From positions 32,001 to 96,000 of IMG/VR virus record IMGVR_UViG_3300020576_006644: a DNA stretch of 64,000 nucleotides; one strand, given 5' to 3'. Each line of letters begins with the position of its first letter. The first letter of the stretch is position 1. Of this stretch, positions 12,151 through 37,626 are shown piece after piece. The notes beneath the pieces are model-generated. The model was not told the DNA's origin, did not search any database, and was given only the letters and a program-made list of their open reading frames with translations. The position numbers were made by a program, and so were the translations under genes. The stretch is from a virus. Taxonomy: Duplodnaviria > Caudoviricetes.

Positions 12151-12215
12151 CTGCGGTCTCCTTGTGTGAGCTGTACCTAGAGGGTTTTCAAAATCCTGCA
12201 ATCCTGGACGTTCGT

Positions 12216-29650: not shown

Positions 29651-31396
29651 TTAGTTAAAGTAGAACGGTAGACCCTGCTGTAACCACTTGATAGTGACCT
29701 CGTCGGCTTGCTCTCCTTCGCGCATCGCGTCGAATGACACCTTGCAGCGGCCAAAACCCCCGGCTTCCTTCATCCCCTCCTCCATCGCGCGGCAGACCTT
29801 TTCGACCAGGGCGAAATTCGTCTTCTTCTGCCCGATGCGCTTGATGGCGAAACCGTCGGAGAGATCGAAATAGAGCCGCAGCTTTCCAGCGCACTTGTCC
29901 CGCAGGAAGTCCTGACCGGCCACGATACCGGCACCCTCGATGTGGTCCAGGGCGAGGTAGATCGCCTTGCGCGCCTTCTTCTCCGCGGTCTGAAGGGTGT
30001 CCTGGGGATCGATGACGACGCGCAGCTCAGTGCCGTTGGCCGCCGCTACCTTGCCGCGGGCGATCAGCTTCCGGGCGAGGCCGCCGTTGCCGTCCGCGCC
30101 GAACAGCGCCACCGGGATGTCAGCGATCGGGTGCGCGAGGACCTGCTCAACGAAGCCGGCAACTTGCCGCTTGGTGTTGCCGACCGGGTACTCTAGCGGC
30201 GCCGCCGGGTAGGGACTCGGCTTGGCTCCGCCGAGCAGCGGTGTCAGTGTTTTTTTGACCAGCTTGCGGGCCGCCGGGAGCATCGTCGGCTGCTTGAGCT
30301 GCGTGGCCACCGGCACACCAGCAGCGGCCAGGGCCTCGCTGGCGATCATCATGTAGGGGTCGAGGCCGCGGGCGGCCCAGCCTTGCAGCAGATCCCGAGC
30401 CCGCGGCGCGTCGGCGATCATGGCGGCGTTGTGAAGATTGCAGGCCACCATGTCCAGCTCCACCGCGTCGGGGAGCACCATGTGGCGGTAGCGCGCTTTG
30501 ATGTTTCCCGGGGAGCTGAGGGCACCGACACGGGTGGACTCGCTGTCCGGCCTGCCGCCGACCAGGGACCGCCCGACCGCGGCGACCTTGGCGATGGTGG
30601 CGGCACTCTTGAGGTCCTTGTCCGCGAGCGCCTGGGTGATAGCGGCTTTGGCCGGCTCGGCGATCTGCGCCTTAAAGGAGGGGAGTGGGCGGTACGCCTG
30701 CATACGGCGCTTGCGCACCGGGTTCCTGCAGGCGGCGATCTGGGCGTCCACCTGATCGAGCAGCTTCTGGACCTTCTCCACTGGGAGCGTCTTTCTCGGC
30801 TTGCCGGTGGGGCTGTCGATGCGGACCGGCTGGTCGATGACCCCGCGCTTGAGCTTCTCCCGAAACAGCTTGATCTCCGCCACCAGCGCCTCGTTCCAGG
30901 ACAACGCACCAGACCGGCACCACCCGTGCTGCCCGAACATCGGCTGCTCATAGTCCTTCACGTCGAGCTTGAGCCCGGCCACCTCTAACTCGCCGGCGAG
31001 CTTGGCGAGGGCTGCGGCCGGGCTCGGCTCACTGAGCAGCGGCGACAGGTAGCTGAGCCCCTGCATTCGCATGTAGCCCTTGTGCCTGCGGCAAGCCGAT
31101 CGCCCGTAGATCATGTCCTGGACGAAGTACAACCTCGCCCTGGCGGCATCGGTAGTGGTTCGCCACGTCTTACCCACCCCGAGAAACAGGAGCGGATAGA
31201 AGGTGTGGAGCATCTGCCACAGGTCTGAGTTGATGAACAGCTTTCGGTGGCGGGTGAATAGTTTCTCTCGCGTGTCGGCGCGCTTCTGCGCGGCCTCGGC
31301 GAGGTCTTTTTGACGCTTAGTTCGGTCTTCTCCAGCGACTACAAAACACACCGCTGGCATTGACCCGTTGACAGCAGGGTCCAGGTTCGAGTACAT
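29651..31396 (-). CDS. Large protein with divergent family-A polymerase / T7-RNAP-like motifs
   Basis: AVELDMVAC (motif A-like), DPYMMIA, RKLVKKTLTPLLGG (motif B-like), YFDLSDGFAI (motif C-like), in the expected order. Confidence 0.5.
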   Translation of the reverse strand: MYSNLDPAVNGSMPAVCFVVAGEDRTKRQKDLAEAAQKRADTREKLFTRHRKLFINSDLWQMLHTFYPLLFLGVGKTWRTTTDAARARLYFVQDMIYGRSACRRHKGYMRMQGLSYLSPLLSEPSPAAALAKLAGELEVAGLKLDVKDYEQPMFGQHGWCRSGALSWNEALVAEIKLFREKLKRGVIDQPVRIDSPTGKPRKTLPVEKVQKLLDQVDAQIAACRNPVRKRRMQAYRPLPSFKAQIAEPAKAAITQALADKDLKSAATIAKVAAVGRSLVGGRPDSESTRVGALSSPGNIKARYRHMVLPDAVELDMVACNLHNAAMIADAPRARDLLQGWAARGLDPYMMIASEALAAAGVPVATQLKQPTMLPAARKLVKKTLTPLLGGAKPSPYPAAPLEYPVGNTKRQVAGFVEQVLAHPIADIPVALFGADGNGGLARKLIARGKVAAANGTELRVVIDPQDTLQTAEKKARKAIYLALDHIEGAGIVAGQDFLRDKCAGKLRLYFDLSDGFAIKRIGQKKTNFALVEKVCRAMEEGMKEAGGFGRCKVSFDAMREGEQADEVTIKWLQQGLPFYFN

Positions 31397-31542: not shown

Positions 31543-32301
31543 CTAGGGCTTGGTCCAGGTGATGAGTACCGTCGAAACGTCGGTCCCCTCCTTGGAGAAG
31601 GTCCCCGCCGGCAGCTCCTCGATTTCCCCGCCGATCGCCAGGGCCTCGCGCAGCCCCTTATAAAGGGCGGTCTCGCGGAAGGTCACGCCGGCCGAGGCAA
31701 TTGCAGCCAGCCGGCCACCGGGGCGGAGGAACTTCATCGCGTGCAGGATGTGGCGAGCCTCCTGCCCCTTGGAGAACGGCGGGTTCATGACCACCGCGTC
31801 GTAGGTCGCCTCTGGCATCTTTTGAAGAAAATCGCCGCCTTGCGTGCAGAACCCCGCCACGATTAACTTTGCGGCCCGAGCTGGGTCCTGCTCGTAGCAA
31901 TAAACCTGAGGGGTGATCGCCTTCGCCTCCGCCGCGATGCGGCCAAGCCCGGCGGACGGCTCCAGCACAAGATCGCCTGCCCGAACAGCCCAGGCCACCA
32001 TTCGCTTGGCCAGCTCGGGCGGCGTCTGGAAGAAGTCCCCGGCGAACTTGGTCTTGAACTCCCCGGTGAGGAGCAGCGCCTCGATCTCGTCTGTCGGATC
32101 GTGATCGAACAGGTGCCCCTTCACCTTCTTGTTCCAGCTGCCACCCAGGGCCTCCACCGCCTCGTTGAAGGCCACGTAGACCTTGCGGTCTAGCTGCCCA
32201 TCGGTGATCCGCGCCACCCAGCACATCGGACCCTGCTCTACCACCAGCCGGCTCAGCACACCCAGGACTTCCGGGGTTAGCTTCTTAATCGACTTCGCCA
32301 T
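31543..32301 (-). CDS. Amino (N6-A/N4-C) DNA methyltransferase
   Basis: DFFQTP, VLEPSAGLG (SAM binding), VVMNPPF (motif IV), F.KEGT.V.T. Confidence 0.88.
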   Translation of the reverse strand: MAKSIKKLTPEVLGVLSRLVVEQGPMCWVARITDGQLDRKVYVAFNEAVEALGGSWNKKVKGHLFDHDPTDEIEALLLTGEFKTKFAGDFFQTPPELAKRMVAWAVRAGDLVLEPSAGLGRIAAEAKAITPQVYCYEQDPARAAKLIVAGFCTQGGDFLQKMPEATYDAVVMNPPFSKGQEARHILHAMKFLRPGGRLAAIASAGVTFRETALYKGLREALAIGGEIEELPAGTFSKEGTDVSTVLITWTKP

Positions 32302-32861
32302 GTTCACGATCTCCACGTTCAAAGGTTGAGCACCCACCAAATCTGATTACCCACCCGATCGCAATCCTGAACATCCACCCAGCCGAGCCGTTCCCACAGG
32401 TACGACCACGGGTACAAAAATCCTGGTCAAACTAAAATCTCCGACGGAACTACCGGAAAAGAAGTCACACACTAAACGGGGGTGGTGGGTGGTATCTAGG
32501 GGGACTAGGGCGGGCAAGGGGCCGGAGGCGCGGCGGGCAGCCGGCAGGGCGTTTTAAGGGCTGCAGAGCCCGGTGGCCGAGTTTTAGGGTGTCTGGGTCT
32601 CCGGTTTTTGTGTCTCGCCTTACATTTTGGACTCCTGTCCCCTGCGGTTTGGGGCTCTAACCACCCTGCCGGCTGCACCCCAACCACCACCTCGTCCCGT
32701 TTAGTAGGGTGACTTCTTTTTGGATGTCCCCGTCGGTGAGTTTTGCGTGACCACGATCTTTTGTGTGTCTGGGTGGGTTTGTGTCCAATCTGGGTAAGCT
32801 GGGATGCTGACCAAACGTCCAGGATTGCCTTGGCTGATCGGGCGGCTGTAGCGTCCAGCTC
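32302..32861. other. Non-coding divergent strand-switch region (origin/terminus or control region candidate)
   Basis: ~560 bp without a credible ORF; G/T-skewed tracts; SOS-like boxes at both ends. Confidence 0.5.
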
Positions 32862-33920
32862 ATGAAACCGACCCACTACCAGATCCTGGGGATCGCCAAG
32901 ACCGCTGCGGCTGAGGAGGTGAAGGCCGCCTTTCGCAGGCTGGCCCGGCTGAACCACCCCGATCGAAACCCGGGTGACAGGGCAGCCGAGGAGCGGTTCA
33001 AGCTGGCCGCTGCAGCCTACGAGGTGCTGTCCGACCCCGCCAAGCGTCAGCACTACGATCGCTTCGGCACCGCGGCCCCGATCGTCATCCCCAGCCGCAA
33101 GGGCCGCTACCTGATAGAGGGCCAGATCGCCTCCGGGGACCTCGCCGACATCTACAAGGCCAAGCGCGAGGCGGACGGGTGGCAGGTCGTCCTCAAGGTC
33201 GCCCGGTCGCCCGCGGTGAACGACCTCCTGGCGGCCGAGGCTGCGCGGCTGAAGGACCTGTTCCCGATCGCTGCCTCACCGATGGGGCCCGGGGTCCGCT
33301 ACCTGCCCAAGTTTTACGACAGCTTCCAGGTGGATGACGGGACGCGGCGGCAGGTGCTGGTGCTGGACTACCTCGCCGACTTCGCCACCTTCGAGCAGGT
33401 TCGGTCGCACTTCCCCGCCGGGGTGGCCCTGGAGCATGGGGTCTGGATGTTCAACCGCCTGCTGGAGGGCCTCGACTATGCGCACCGCCAGGGGCACGTT
33501 CACGGGGCGCTCGTGCCGTCGAACGCCATGGTTTGGCTCGACCCCATGGGGCACCTGTGCAAGATCATCGACTGGAGCTACGCCGGCAAGGTCGGCGAGC
33601 GCGTCAAGGCGATTTCCCCGAGCTGGCGGTCGTTTTACCCGCCCGAGGTCCTGGGGAAGCAGCCGGCCACCGCGGCGACCGACATCTATATGGCGGCCAA
33701 GCTCGTCGGCTACGTCCTGGGTGGCACCGAGGCGAGTCACTGGCTCCCGTCGGCCGCCCCCGACTACTTGCGGCGGTTCTTGACGGGCTGCTGTCTGCCG
33801 GACCCGCGGCAGCGCCCCCAGGGCGCCTGGGCCGCCCACGAAGAGTTCCGCGCCTACATGCAGGCGCATTACGGGCCGAAGAAGTTCGTGCCCTTTACCA
33901 ACCCGGGCTGGGCCCGGTAG
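32862..33920 (+). CDS. J-domain fused to protein-kinase-like (pseudokinase) domain
   Basis: HYQILG...HPDRNPGD J-domain; [13 protein letters not shown] (catalytic Asp absent), IIDWSY, YPPE, TDIY. Confidence 0.88.
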
Positions 33921-33939
33921 ACGACAAGGAGAAGATGCC

Positions 33940-34962
33940 ATGGGATACGCAAACTACAGCGACGATGCGGCGGCGGCACGGGTGACGAGCCGGGTGGCGG
34001 ATGGCAAGCCGGCGGTGGCCAGCTACACGGCGGACGTGCGCAGCGGCGCCGCGCCGGCCAAGGCGCACAAGGACCTCGACCCCAAGGGGATGCTGTTTCG
34101 CGAGAGCCGCGACAGCGCCAACCACCCCGAGTCGGTGCCGGTGATCATTGGCCTGGACCAGACCGGGTCCATGGGCCGGGTGGTCAAGCAGATTCAGAAG
34201 TCGATCACCCCGATCATGAAGCTGCTGGTGGACAAGGGCTACCTGCCCCACCCCCACATCATGGTGATCGGTATCGGTGACAGCCCCAACATGGAGGCGG
34301 CCCCGCTGCAGGTCAGCCAGTTTGAGAGCGACGACAAGATCGAGGCGTGCATCGACAGCATCTACATCGAGGGCAACGGCGGCGGCCAGAACAAGGAGAG
34401 CTACCAGAACGCCGCCTACGTCGCCGGCTTCAAGACCCGGACCGACCACTTCGAGAAGCGCGGGCAGAAGGGCTACTTCTTCATCATCGGCGACGAGATG
34501 AACCACCGCTTCGAGCGGCAGGAGCTTATCGACCTCATCGGGACGGCGGACGAGCGGGGCCTCTCCGAGGAGCTGACCACCCAGCAGGTCTACGAGCGGG
34601 CCAAGGAGCGGTATCACATCTTCTTCGTCCTCCCCAAGAACGCCCAGAACGGCGGCAACCCGGGTATCAAGAACCACTGGAAGGTGCTGCTCGGGGAGGA
34701 GAATGTGCTGGAGCTGGCGGACGAGAACGCCGCCGGTGAGTTTATCGCCGCCCAGATCGGCCTGTGCGAGGACCGCACGGACCTGGACACCATCGCCCGC
34801 GACATCGTGGATATCCACGGCGCCGGTGCGCACTCCCACGCGCTCGTGGCCGCCGTGACGGGCGGCGTGTCGACCACCTACAAGGGGCAGACGCTGGCGC
34901 GTGTTCCGGCCGGCAGCCTCACCCCGTCCACCAACAACCCGGTCAGCATCGACCGTTTGTAA
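33940..34962 (+). CDS. von Willebrand factor A (vWA) domain protein
   Basis: IIGLDQTGSMG MIDAS-like, GIGD, EGNGGGQNKESY, FFIIGDE. Confidence 0.85.
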   Translation: MGYANYSDDAAAARVTSRVADGKPAVASYTADVRSGAAPAKAHKDLDPKGMLFRESRDSANHPESVPVIIGLDQTGSMGRVVKQIQKSITPIMKLLVDKGYLPHPHIMVIGIGDSPNMEAAPLQVSQFESDDKIEACIDSIYIEGNGGGQNKESYQNAAYVAGFKTRTDHFEKRGQKGYFFIIGDEMNHRFERQELIDLIGTADERGLSEELTTQQVYERAKERYHIFFVLPKNAQNGGNPGIKNHWKVLLGEENVLELADENAAGEFIAAQIGLCEDRTDLDTIARDIVDIHGAGAHSHALVAAVTGGVSTTYKGQTLARVPAGSLTPSTNNPVSIDRL

Positions 34963-34971
34963 GGGCGAAGC

Positions 34972-35008
34972 GGTGCGCGGATCTTCATCTTTGGGAGATC
35001 CGCGCACC
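34972..35008 (+). promoter_or_regulatory. 15-bp stem-loop directly 5' of the purA-like RBS
   Basis: GGTGCGCGGATCTTC-ATCTTTG-GGAGATCCGCGCACC followed by CACAAGGAGG. Confidence 0.6.
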
Positions 35009-35023
35009 CACAAGGAGGCGCTC

Positions 35024-36394
35024 ATGCTCAGAAAAACTTTGGCACCCCAGGTCGTTCTGCTCTGTGGCCTCGGGTTCGGCGACGAGGGGAAGGGTACGAC
35101 GGTGGATTTTTTGACCGAGCAGCTCGGAGCACACACCGTCGTTCGCTATAACGGCGGCCCACAGGCGGCGCACACCGTCGTGGAGAAGGGCCGGCACCAC
35201 GTCTTTGCGCAGTTCGGCTCAGGGACGCTGCTGGGTGCACGGACCTACCTCAGCAGCCACATGCTGGTTTGCCCGTTCCGCCTGCAGTCTGAGGCCGCCG
35301 CGCTGGACGCGATCGGCATCCGTCGGTCCCTCGACATGGTGGCGATCGACCGGGCGGCGCCGCTGGTGACGCCGGTGCACAAACTGGCCTGCCAGGTGCG
35401 GGAGCTGGCGCGCCAGGACCGGCATGGCTCCTGCGGGATGGGCATCTGGGAGACAACGCGGATCGCTCGGCAGAACCCCAAGATCGCCCCGCGGGTTGGG
35501 GACTTGGAGGACATCGACCTTCTCATGGAGAAGATTGAAGCCCTGCGCCTGGAGATGCTGTACGACGTGTGCGACGACGTGGTGGCAGCAAGGGAGACGC
35601 CCCGGCACGCCGCAGCTCAGAAGGTCTATCAGGAACTCGACGACCTGGACCTGCCCGCGCTGCGCCAGCGATACGCGGAGATCGGTAAGGAAACCACCCT
35701 TGGAAAGTACGGCCTGGTCGACAGCGGGTACTTGGGTGATCGTCTCCAGTCTGGCACCACGATCTTCGAAGGGGCACAGGGTGTGTTGCTCGACGAGACG
35801 TGGGGATTCCACCCGCACACGACGGGCAGCACGACCACCTTCGCTAACGCCGAGGACATCCTGTCGGACCTGGGGTACGGCGGGGAAAAGTACCGGATCG
35901 GGGTTCTGCGCAGCTACATGACGCGGCATGGCCAGGGTCCGATGCCGACGGAGCTGCGCACCCTGGCGTCCGAGGAGGTCCACAACAAGACGACCCCATG
36001 GGCAGGGGACTTCAGGCACGGGATACTCGATTTGGTCCTCCTCCGCTACGCCATTTCCGTGGTCGGCGGTATCGACTCGCTGGCGCTCACCCACGCGGAC
36101 CGCTGGTCGAAATACGGGACCGCCTGCGTGTCGTACTCCCCGGTGTCGCAGCGCTATTTCCAGCTCGGCGGTGCGCTGTTGCGCCGGTCGGAGTGCCCAG
36201 ACCTCGGTTACCAAGAGGGGCTGGGTCGTGCGGTCGCGGCTGCCCATCCGGTGTGCAAGTCGGGAGATCTCATCGAGATCGTCGAGGATCAGCTGCAGGT
36301 CGATGTTTCCGTCTTGTCGAGCGGCCCTGGGCGCGGCGACAAGTGCTGGCTGAACAAACGCGCCGGATTGCCGGCCGCGGCTGCCTGCGGGTAA
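35024..36394 (+). CDS. Divergent adenylosuccinate synthetase-like (PurA family) protein
   Basis: GFGDEGKG, RYNGGPQAAHT, FEGAQGVLLD, HPHTT, TRHGQGPMPTE; substrate loop and TKLD motif divergent. Confidence 0.88.
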   Translation: MLRKTLAPQVVLLCGLGFGDEGKGTTVDFLTEQLGAHTVVRYNGGPQAAHTVVEKGRHHVFAQFGSGTLLGARTYLSSHMLVCPFRLQSEAAALDAIGIRRSLDMVAIDRAAPLVTPVHKLACQVRELARQDRHGSCGMGIWETTRIARQNPKIAPRVGDLEDIDLLMEKIEALRLEMLYDVCDDVVAARETPRHAAAQKVYQELDDLDLPALRQRYAEIGKETTLGKYGLVDSGYLGDRLQSGTTIFEGAQGVLLDETWGFHPHTTGSTTTFANAEDILSDLGYGGEKYRIGVLRSYMTRHGQGPMPTELRTLASEEVHNKTTPWAGDFRHGILDLVLLRYAISVVGGIDSLALTHADRWSKYGTACVSYSPVSQRYFQLGGALLRRSECPDLGYQEGLGRAVAAAHPVCKSGDLIEIVEDQLQVDVSVLSSGPGRGDKCWLNKRAGLPAAAACG

Positions 36395-36419: not shown

Positions 36420-36587
36420 ATGGACCAGATCGTTGAGCGGTTTGACGACAGCCCGGCCAGCAAGCTGAGGCAGTACCTGGAGGACAATCTGCACCTGCGC
36501 GTTGTCGCCATGACCGGCTGGGTGGCGACCGATGGCGAGGAGTGCTTGATCGCTGTGTTCGAACCCAAGTCGCGGGTGGCGTTGTGA
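36420..36587 (+). CDS. Small hypothetical protein
   Basis: AAGGAGG RBS, 55 aa (MDQIVERFDD...). Confidence 0.6.
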   Translation: MDQIVERFDDSPASKLRQYLEDNLHLRVVAMTGWVATDGEECLIAVFEPKSRVAL

Positions 36588-37228
36588 CAGACGGCAGCGA
36601 GTTCGACTGCAAGGGTGGGTGCCGTCGGCGCACCGCCAACCTGAGCGGGACCTGTACCGACTGCCGGCGCGAGGGCTGCGGTCGGATCGTGATGGGTCAG
36701 AGCGGAGACTGCGTCTGCCCGAGCCTTGAGCATCACGATCACCTTGTCGCGCAGGGCCGGCTGCGCTTCGACAAAGTTCAAGGCCGGCTCATCCCGCCGC
36801 TCCGCGTCGAGCATCCCTTCAGCCTCGATGTCCCGGTCTACGCCCCCGAGCACCTGGAGTCGCGCATCGCCGCTATCGTCAAGGGCTTCGACGCCGAGCG
36901 GGTTCACAAGGTGATGACGATGCTCGACTGGCGCTGGGGCGGCAGTGACATGCCGGTGGGTGGCGTCCCCACGGTCGAGCAGATCAGGGAGAAGGCCGCC
37001 GGACTGCTGCGCTGCACCGTCTCCGACTTCGCCTCTGGCAAGATCGGCGCTGGCGGCGGCTGGGGCACCGGCGGCCTCAAGACCATCATCTCGGAGCGCG
37101 GGGAGCTGGCTGTCACCTTCGAGCTGTGTGACGCCTTCGAGCAGCTGCAGCACTGCGACGAGGGGGGTGCGCCGCTGCCGGCCGGCTACCTGTGCGTCGG
37201 GGACCCCAGGACCTGGAGGAACACCTAA
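36584..37228 (+). CDS. Hypothetical protein, Cys-rich N-terminus
   Basis: FDAERVHKVMTMLDWRW...TGGL phage-type domain. Confidence 0.6.
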   Translation: MTDGSEFDCKGGCRRRTANLSGTCTDCRREGCGRIVMGQSGDCVCPSLEHHDHLVAQGRLRFDKVQGRLIPPLRVEHPFSLDVPVYAPEHLESRIAAIVKGFDAERVHKVMTMLDWRWGGSDMPVGGVPTVEQIREKAAGLLRCTVSDFASGKIGAGGGWGTGGLKTIISERGELAVTFELCDAFEQLQHCDEGGAPLPAGYLCVGDPRTWRNT

Positions 37229-37626
37229 TGGGCAAGTGGAGACTCTACAAGCACCACCTGGGCGACTACATGCGCCGGTGGATCTTCCAAACCCCATGGG
37301 GCACCATCCACCTTCACCACATCCTGCGCAGTGACGGTGATAGGGCGTTCCATGATCACCCCTGGAACTTCACCAGCAACCTGCTCTCCGGTGGCTACAC
37401 CGAGCTGCGACCCGCCGGGTACAACGCGACCACAATGCGGGTCTGGCCCCGCTGGAGCATTGTTCGCCGCAAGGCGACTGATCTACACCGCTTGATTCTC
37501 GACAAGCCCGTCTGGACGCTGGTTTTCACCTCTAAGAAGCTGCGGGAGTGGGGCTTCGTCGAGGACGGCAAGTGGACTCACTGGCGCGAGTACGAGAAGC
37601 GCTACACCTCAAAGGCCCTCACATGA
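37228..37626 (+). CDS. Cupin-like phage protein
   Basis: HLHHILRSD...HDHPWNF...GGYTE...HRL...WTLV...WGF. Confidence 0.75.
   Translation: MGKWRLYKHHLGDYMRRWIFQTPWGTIHLHHILRSDGDRAFHDHPWNFTSNLLSGGYTELRPAGYNATTMRVWPRWSIVRRKATDLHRLILDKPVWTLVFTSKKLREWGFVEDGKWTHWREYEKRYTSKALT

Follow-up and report, generated by a model that had tools for sequence, protein, structure and literature searches.

A phage copy of a widespread vWA and PurA-like gene module whose bacterial relatives lie in NAD/ADP-ribose neighbourhoods

We analysed three adjacent genes (positions 32862–36394) in a 64,000-nucleotide stretch of viral DNA, hereafter the window, which comprises bases 32001–96000 of the 112,623-bp IMG/VR virus record IMGVR_UViG_3300020576_006644, a record with direct terminal repeats that is rated 100% complete. 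The genes encode a J-domain pseudokinase, a von Willebrand factor A (vWA) protein with a metal ion-dependent adhesion site (MIDAS), and an enzyme of the PurA family. The last two form the obligate core of a module that recurs in phages and bacteria; upstream of them, the pseudokinase can be exchanged for at least two other partners. Judged by its residues and scores, the enzyme differs from both PurA and PurZ and represents a new form of the PurA family that depends on a partner. It has lost the aspartate site of PurA and become obligately tied to a protein partner, so that its product is likely to be new. We tentatively read the window genes as the phage copy of a widespread module whose product or activity supports the cell's NAD+/ADP-ribose economy, with a predicted ligase that takes an amine other than aspartate, and we rate this reading a little short of an even chance. 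Full-text literature searches returned no description of a vWA and PurA-like module. One earlier case of PurA chemistry put to new use in phages, that of PurZ, led to a new DNA base.

A PurA-family enzyme without the aspartate site

The third gene (35024–36394, + strand) encodes a predicted GTP-dependent ligase of 456 amino acids, assigned from PF00709, its motifs and their alignment. Its open reading frame (ORF) extends upstream to 34901; the true start is the ATG at 35024, which has AAGGAGG 6 nt upstream and gives a 456-residue product that matches public gene calls. The match to PF00709 runs end to end (E 1.6e-55). We compared the enzyme residue by residue with E. coli PurA (EC 6.3.4.4; structures 1ADE and 1CG0), phiVC8 PurZ and 86 non-redundant relatives, and residue numbers below are those of E. 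coli PurA. The window enzyme shares with PurA the fold, the GDEGKG P-loop (nt 35078–35095) with Asp13, which is Asp21 of the window enzyme, Lys16, the catalytic histidine in QAAHT (nt 35162–35176; His50 of the window enzyme, His41 of E. coli PurA), Gln224 and Thr239. Asp13 and Lys16 are each retained in 85 of the 86 relatives, and His41, Gln224 and Thr239 in every one. The motif EGAQG lies at nt 35768–35782.

Other positions are remodelled. GSCG stands in place of GTTG, within GSCGMGIW (nt 35426–35449), HNKTTPWAGDFR in place of the aspartate loop (nt 35981–36031), and THAD in place of TKLD (nt 36089–36100). These three replacements, together with the retained GDEGKG and catalytic histidine, had been named in the original prediction, an earlier description made from the sequence alone, and all of them can be read against E. 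coli PurA and phiVC8 PurZ. Across the family, Asn38 has become Gln and Val273 has become His in all 86 relatives, Thr129 is Cys in 79 (giving the signature HGSCGMGIW) and Lys331 is His in 75; the window enzyme carries all four changes, and its TRHG motif lies at nt 35921–35932. Arg143 is unconserved and is Asn in the window enzyme. The IMP (inosine monophosphate) 5'-phosphate ligands Asn38, Thr129, Arg143 and Thr239 thus read Gln, Cys, Asn and Thr here, with only Thr239 retained. Position 333, which reads the guanine base in PurA, is Asp in 37 relatives and Asn in 49; it is Asp in the window clade and forms part of THAD.

The most consistent loss concerns the amine donor. The aspartate loop is four residues shorter than in PurA, and Arg303 and Arg305 are deleted both in the window enzyme and in all 86 relatives. 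The PurA set of Thr300, Thr301, Arg303 and Arg305 is accordingly broken, Thr301 being absent along with the two arginines. Since both arginines that bind the carboxylates of aspartate are deleted, the incoming amine is predicted to be something other than aspartate. The same suggestion had been made before the relatives were compared, and it stands as a fair inference.

Scores and phylogeny place the enzyme outside both characterised groups. It falls well below the NCBIfam equivalog cut-offs for PurA (157 bits vs 402 for NF002223; 136 vs 396 for TIGR00184) and for PurZ (38.3 bits vs 300). PurZ resembles it in being a PurA paralogue of phages whose substrate specificity has shifted, but the P-loop of phiVC8 PurZ reads GSTGKG rather than GDEGKG, as the original prediction had argued in setting the enzyme apart from PurZ. 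Serine occupies the Asp13 position in all 147 phage PurZ/PurZ0 sequences, among 481 phage homologues of PF00709 of which those beyond PurZ/PurZ0 were left uncharacterised (2026 NAR paper, PMC12884076). PurZ still uses aspartate, and it travels with DatZ, MazZ, DUF550 or DutZ, and DpoZ. The phylogeny proposed earlier as a check gave the same division. In a quick maximum-likelihood tree, where two rows labelled canonical PurA (L128 and L129) are wrong ORFs and are to be disregarded, a branch with a Shimodaira–Hasegawa-like approximate likelihood ratio test (SH-aLRT) support of 95 separates canonical PurA and PurZ from all vWA-linked enzymes. Within the latter, the window enzyme clusters with those of IMG/VR locus L005, a Saccharibacteria metagenome-assembled genome (MAG; L045) and Mycobacterium phage Rizal (support 97). 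In bacteria the enzyme is a paralogue beside a normal purA: four module-bearing isolates also hold a gene that scores 541–605 bits, against 72–141 bits for the paralogue.

A conserved unit of vWA and PurA-like genes

The second gene (33940–34962, + strand) encodes the vWA/MIDAS protein, of 340 amino acids, and has AAGGAG 9 nt upstream of its ATG. Searches of Pfam, NCBIfam and PADLOC gave no match to this protein, and in PHROGs it matches phrog_2971 (function unknown; E 4.5e-49). An AlphaFold2 (AF2) model built with 22 homologues has a predicted template modelling score (pTM) of 0.71, and Foldseek aligns it with probability 1.0 to integrin I domains, BatB, the vWA domains of Ku80 and NorD, and others. 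The metal-site motif accompanies this fold, as DQTGSMG at nt 34156–34176: D73-x-T75-G-S77 is invariant in the family, as are SQFESD and GDE, and GGGxN.ESY is also present. In the model, a disordered tail of about 49 residues forms the N-terminus and opens with Met-Gly, the window protein beginning MGYANY.

A profile search with the vWA family against 1.84 billion representatives returned 1631 clusters at E <= 1e-10, so that this partner alone makes the module numerous. Among the full-length representatives in the best 150 matches, 133 of 138 start with Met-Gly and 133 of 138 carry DxTGSM, and in most the profile match starts at residue 1. An MGxGx[WFY] N-terminus is found in 80 of 87 vWA copies from the bacterial loci described below. 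Five Ruminococcus/Oscillospiraceae loci (L066, L072, L081, L095 and L104) have two tandem vWA paralogues ahead of the PurA-like gene.

We considered how constantly these genes travel together in two sets of loci. The phage set consists of 40 IMG/VR loci with a PurA-like relative, to which Rizal, fetched separately, adds a 41st; the bacterial set is made up of the best 80 among 187 matches of the vWA profile in bacteria or MAGs. In 37 of the 40 IMG/VR loci the PurA-like gene is immediately preceded by the vWA gene, and in 77 of the 80 bacterial loci the vWA gene is immediately followed by the PurA-like gene. The gene just upstream of the vWA gene, by contrast, varies. In the IMG/VR loci it encodes a protein that we call p200 (36/40) or the pseudokinase (1/40, L005), and Rizal brings the pseudokinase to 2 of 41 phage loci; in the bacterial loci it encodes p200 (41), the pseudokinase (15) or p117 (8). 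The original prediction's statement that similar clusters occur in bacteria is thus confirmed. The kinase is not part of the core, however, and other proteins stand in for it elsewhere.

A natural fusion of the two core proteins, the 936-residue NCBI protein P0001, joins a vWA part (residues 1–230, starting MGGGSY) through an unknown middle of about 260 residues with beta strands to a PurA-like part (residues 499–936). The adjacency counts, this fusion and the varying upstream gene together indicate that the conserved unit is the vWA and PurA-like pair and that the third partner is replaceable. The window shows the features that define the module, namely a vWA protein with Met-Gly and DxTGSM encoded directly upstream of a PurA-like enzyme with Gln38, GSCG, TRHG and a short aspartate loop.

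In tblastn searches, the PurA-like gene was found in 239 phage records, of which 201 are Bxz1-type Mycobacterium phages, and the vWA gene in 219; more than 200 phage genome records have the pair, and Bxz1-type mycobacteriophages account for about 200 of these. These phages grow on M. smegmatis and provide cultivable carriers of the module. The order in Rizal is kinase (gp250), vWA (gp251), a 90-residue gene and PurA-like (gp253). The module is also carried by many gut, marine and ultra-small bacteria.

The replacement partners have their own character. p200, of about 200 residues, combines a conserved N-terminal domain of 120 residues with an acidic tail rich in Met and Gly; its gene immediately precedes the vWA gene at L010:4533-5117 and at 35 other IMG/VR loci, as well as at the 41 bacterial loci (e.g. 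L079:5134-5757), and no name for it was found in Pfam, PHROG or Atlas. A kinship between p200 and the pseudokinase was rejected, as hhalign gave a probability of 0.1 against the pseudokinase family. p117 is a 117-residue protein with no family match. An Hsp70 gene near one bacterial locus was also dismissed as a part of the module, being a single chance neighbour. In 13 phage loci a DUF2828/DUF7788 protein (phrog_850, 'RNA-binding protein') is encoded about 2 kb downstream of the module, for example at L013:8315-9910; Vibrio phage VB_VaC_TDDLMA has such a protein at L125:11263-12771.

The NAD/ADP-ribose neighbourhood of bacterial relatives

The bacterial relatives of the module sit in an NAD/ADP-ribose neighbourhood. 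Neighbouring genes were grouped by blastp clustering and then assigned with Pfam. An NrtR gene (NUDIX + NrtR_WHD) adjoins the module in 36 of the 80 bacterial loci, and NAMPT-type genes and isochorismatase (PncA-like) genes occur in 6 of the 80 each. A Pfam tally of 137 ORFs that neighbour the module at 16 loci gave NrtR_WHD 9 times, NAPRTase 7 times (4 with NAMPT_N and 3 with NAPRTase_N), NUDIX 6, NAD_synthase 3, Isochorismatase 2, Pribosyltran_N (Prs-like) 2, Tpt1/KptA 2, ARH 1 and NadA 1; the 16 loci were picked partly for NrtR, NAMPT or isochorismatase, so that the counts for those three are biased, whereas NadE, PncB, Prs-like, Tpt1 and ARH were not among the selection criteria and their counts are independent of the selection. 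The neighbours NrtR, NAMPT, NadE, PncA, Macro, ARH and Tpt1 put the module in NAD+/ADP-ribose metabolism, which is an active front of phage–host conflict where three phage pathways for rebuilding NAD+ have appeared since 2024.

Individual loci show how close this association can be. A Flavobacteriaceae MAG operon (L053:1845-9697; also L056 and L067) runs in one direction through NrtR, a short Prs-like gene, Macro, ADP-ribosylglycohydrolase (ARH), Tpt1/KptA, p117, vWA, PurA-like and NAMPT. In the Saccharibacteria locus, which is closest to the window enzyme, the vWA and PurA-like genes are followed by a NadE-NMNAT fusion, one further gene and an isochorismatase. Some phage relatives are similar: Rhizobium phage RHph_Y65 has phosphoribosyltransferase-like and NMNAT/Nudix genes 3–4 kb upstream of the module, and a NAMPT-family gene is present in 8 of 37 module-bearing phage records, in three of them within about 4 kb of it.

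Two groups of known systems invite comparison. The phage NAD+ reconstitution pathways NARP1 (Adps + Namat), NARP2 (Nampt + Nmnat) and NARP3 (PnuC + NadR) are likewise phage-carried, and relatives of our module adjoin NAMPT-family and Prs-like genes under NrtR, but the components of the module are not homologous to the NARP enzymes. The Prs-like and NAMPT pair of the Flavobacteriaceae operon resembles NARP1. We know of no NAD-forming reaction carried out by the PurA fold. The second group is that of the ARG-centred systems for processing ADP-ribose, with Nudix/WYL regulators and a vWA protein proposed as a peptide-binding chaperone (Iyer et al., 2022, PMC9503650). Like them, some bacterial relatives combine a Nudix-type regulator, vWA and ARH/Macro genes in one operon; unlike them, the module centres on a PurA-like enzyme, which Iyer et al. 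(2022) do not mention, and the phage copy lacks ARH, Macro and Nudix genes.

Taken with the enzyme's residues, these neighbourhoods suggest that the function of the module is probably linked to NAD/ADP-ribose metabolism, and that during infection it more likely affects the NAD economy of the host cell than the modification of DNA.

Proposed activity and alternatives

We suggest a sequence of steps whose chemistry is drawn from conserved residues, with the roles of the vWA protein and J domain taken from their domain families and the NAD role from the bacterial neighbourhoods. The enzyme would phosphorylate the 6-oxo group of an IMP-like substrate with a nucleoside triphosphate. Because the residues for gamma-phosphate transfer and for holding the 6-oxopurine are kept, an IMP-like lactam is probably still phosphorylated, and because THAD retains the guanine-reading Asp, the triphosphate in the window clade is probably GTP. 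The ribose-phosphate end of the substrate would be held differently from that of IMP in PurA, since three of the four 5'-phosphate ligands are changed and two positive charges are lost. The activated group would then be displaced by an amine other than aspartate. The vWA protein would act as a physically coupled partner, whose Mg2+ site or conserved free N-terminal glycine tail may present or hold a substrate, and the J domain would recruit host DnaK to the complex. In the phage, such an activity would help to maintain or replenish nucleotide or NAD-linked pools in the infected cell, for instance while host defences are consuming NAD+.

Several observations, in addition to the biased choice of loci in the Pfam tally, weigh against an NAD/ADP-ribose role for the window genes. 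The phage genome has no NAPRTase-family (including NAMPT), NMNAT-family or Nudix gene; Prs-like, PnuC and NadR genes were not searched for separately. Between 32340 and 32862, upstream of the three genes, there is neither an NrtR-type GT-N7-AC core nor an inverted repeat, and with no Nudix gene either, nothing indicates NrtR control in this phage. The window thus holds a stand-alone phage form of the module in a complete genome, without NAD genes or NrtR, and its NAD link is borrowed from relatives. Nor, to our knowledge, does any intermediate of NAD or ADP-ribose metabolism stand out as a 6-oxopurine substrate. Finally, in the AF2 model of fusion P0001 only the PurA half is confident, with a predicted local distance difference test score (pLDDT) above 90; the N-terminal tail lies at 30–35, and the vWA half is not resolved.

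The foremost alternative, which we nonetheless regard as unlikely, is a protein-directed ligase that joins an activated purine nucleotide to a protein amine, in the simplest case the N-terminal glycine of the vWA protein, with the pseudokinase and DnaK handling the client. The nearly universal Met-Gly start of the vWA representatives (133/138), the profile match that begins at residue 1 in most of them and the flexible tail modelled over the first 49 or so residues would all suit such a target, and the loss of Arg303 and Arg305 fits a peptide alpha-amine, which has no adjacent free carboxylates. The fusion P0001, too, retains MGGGSY as a free N-terminus. The tail in the model of this fusion, however, has only the low pLDDT given above, a conserved N-terminal glycine may have other causes such as stability or docking, and the NAD neighbourhood is not explained by protein ligation alone. 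A combined form, in which the enzyme couples a GTP-activated 6-oxopurine nucleotide to the vWA N-terminal glycine, the purine-tagged protein acts in the phage–bacteria conflict over NAD+/ADP-ribose and the pseudokinase brings DnaK, appears to us quite unlikely.

We hold modification of nucleic-acid bases to be improbable. The enzyme might make a non-canonical purine nucleotide for phage DNA, or a 6-oxopurine might be edited within DNA or RNA; PurZ is a precedent for a phage PurA paralogue whose product enters DNA (PMC12884076), the genes lie among replication genes and beside a DNA methyltransferase-like gene, and of the four IMP 5'-phosphate ligands only one is unchanged. In many bacterial chromosomes, however, the module stands under NrtR beside NAD genes and not beside genes for DNA modification, and its conserved neighbours include no polymerase or transferase specific to modification. 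The phage genome contains neither DatZ (PF12917) nor PurB. For the feed into DNA modification that the original prediction had raised, no evidence links these genes to it.

Ordinary auxiliary purine metabolism has an equally small probability in our view. Here the enzyme would be an adenylosuccinate synthetase, genuine despite its divergence, or would aminate IMP directly to AMP with ammonia, and would so raise the adenylate supply. The full-length PF00709 match, the retained catalytic Asp, His, Lys and Gln, and the GenBank annotation of relatives as PurA-like adenylosuccinate synthetases are what such a reading would predict. Against it stand the deleted aspartate loop, the 157 bits reached against an equivalog cut-off of 402, the obligate vWA partner, the separate canonical purA kept by the four module-bearing isolates and the lack of PurB in the phage.

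A PurZ-type Z-genome pathway for 2-aminoadenine DNA synthesis is very improbable and already contradicted by the sequence, for although the best PHROG match (phrog_1211) and the RefSeq copies of the mycobacteriophage genes bear the name 2-aminooxy adenylosuccinate synthetase, phrog_1211 lumps PurZ with other phage PurA homologues, the P-loop carries Asp at the position that is Ser in every one of the 147 phage PurZ/PurZ0 sequences (PMC12884076), the enzyme reaches 38 bits where the PurZ model requires 300, and DatZ was not found. The search for PurZ companions covered DatZ and DUF550, with MazG and DutZ outside it; DUF550 gave no match in the phage genome, and likewise none in control genomes.

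The J-domain pseudokinase

The first gene (32862–33920, + strand) encodes a protein of 352 amino acids, assigned from Pfam, PHROGs (phrog_3043, 'kinase') and its motifs. It joins a J domain (residues 4–66) to a kinase-like domain (residues 85–340), with Pfam scores of 83.6 bits for DnaJ (PF00226 cut-off 27.8; E 1e-23) and 42.9 bits for Pkinase (cut-off 31.7; E 5e-11). As in J-domain co-chaperones, the HPD motif is intact (residues 32–34, nt 32955–32963), and residues 2–72 align with the J domain of E. coli DnaJ (residues 2–72 of the 1BQZ chain; E 9e-18).

The kinase-like domain has HGALVPSN (residues 214–221, nt 33501–33524) where HRDxKxxN is expected, and so lacks the HRD Asp of active Hanks-type Ser/Thr kinases; DWS (residues 237–239, nt 33570–33578) takes the place of DFG. 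Both changes had been reported in the original prediction and are plain in the sequence. HGA replaces HRD also in the two closest homologues, those of L005 and Rizal (gp250). The window protein retains the VAIK-type Lys112, Glu126, Asn221 and Asp237 (of DWS); Lys112 and Asp237 are confined to its clade, which may still be able to bind nucleotide. Twelve bacterial homologues are more degenerate, having lost the Lys and the DFG Asp, and across the bacterial homologues only His214, Pro228, His231, Trp238 and a C-terminal G-x-R/K-x-F motif are kept. On these residues, the kinase family is a pseudokinase scaffold. The N-terminus can also change: in some bacterial pseudokinases, including those at the Ruminococcus/Oscillospiraceae loci L066, L072, L081, L095 and L104, a Cys4 zinc-ribbon-like segment replaces the J domain. 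PADLOC returned generic kinase matches only, and nothing for the vWA or PurA-like proteins.

The TerY-P triad reportedly consists of the vWA protein TerY, a Ser/Thr kinase and a PP2C phosphatase. The window genes resemble it in placing a vWA gene beside a kinase-fold gene in one operon, but they differ in that no PP2C (PF13672) was found in the phage genome, the kinase lacks its catalytic Asp and the third gene is PurA-like; the combination of vWA, active kinase and PP2C is therefore not the one found here.

Operon layout and upstream operator

The three co-oriented genes named in the original prediction are real + strand ORFs (32862–33920, 33940–34962 and 34901–36394), with high third-position GC (0.81–0.93). 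The gaps between the genes, of 19 and 61 nt, make it likely that they form an operon. The SOS box placed in front of them in the same account survives in part. At 32807–32822 (+ strand), 40 nt before the first ATG, lies CTGACCAAACGTCCAG, followed by GATTGC, which is a two-mismatch copy of a LexA-type operator found throughout the phage; neither an E. coli-type SOS box (CTGT-N8-ACAG) nor a Gram-positive-type one (GAAC-N4-GTTC) is present upstream of the operon. Allowing up to two mismatches, CTGAAC-N4-GTTCAG occurs 14 times in the window against 2.19 expected, a number reached in none of 100 shuffles; other copies stand, for example, at 12204, 43350 and 62980. The box is thus a weak copy of the phage's general operator and is not informative about this operon specifically.

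Genomic setting

The phage is distant from cultured phages: a 20-kb portion of the window has no megablast match among 50,697 phage records, and the DNA polymerase reaches at best 26% identity. The window has a GC content of about 65% and no tRNAs. Its replication genes include, besides the polymerase, a primase, DnaB-like and other helicases, and SbcCD-like genes.

Upstream of the operon and divergent from it lies the DNA methyltransferase-like gene (31543–32340, - strand), which matches MTS, N6_Mtase and several PHROG methyltransferase families; beside it, a 581-residue protein (29651–31396, - strand) has no family match. Downstream are two overlapping + strand ORFs that are not kept beside the module in relatives. 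The first, of 228 residues (36542–37228), has no family match, and the second, of 144 residues (37192–37626), matches phrog_4786 ('cysteine dioxygenase') with E 5e-38.

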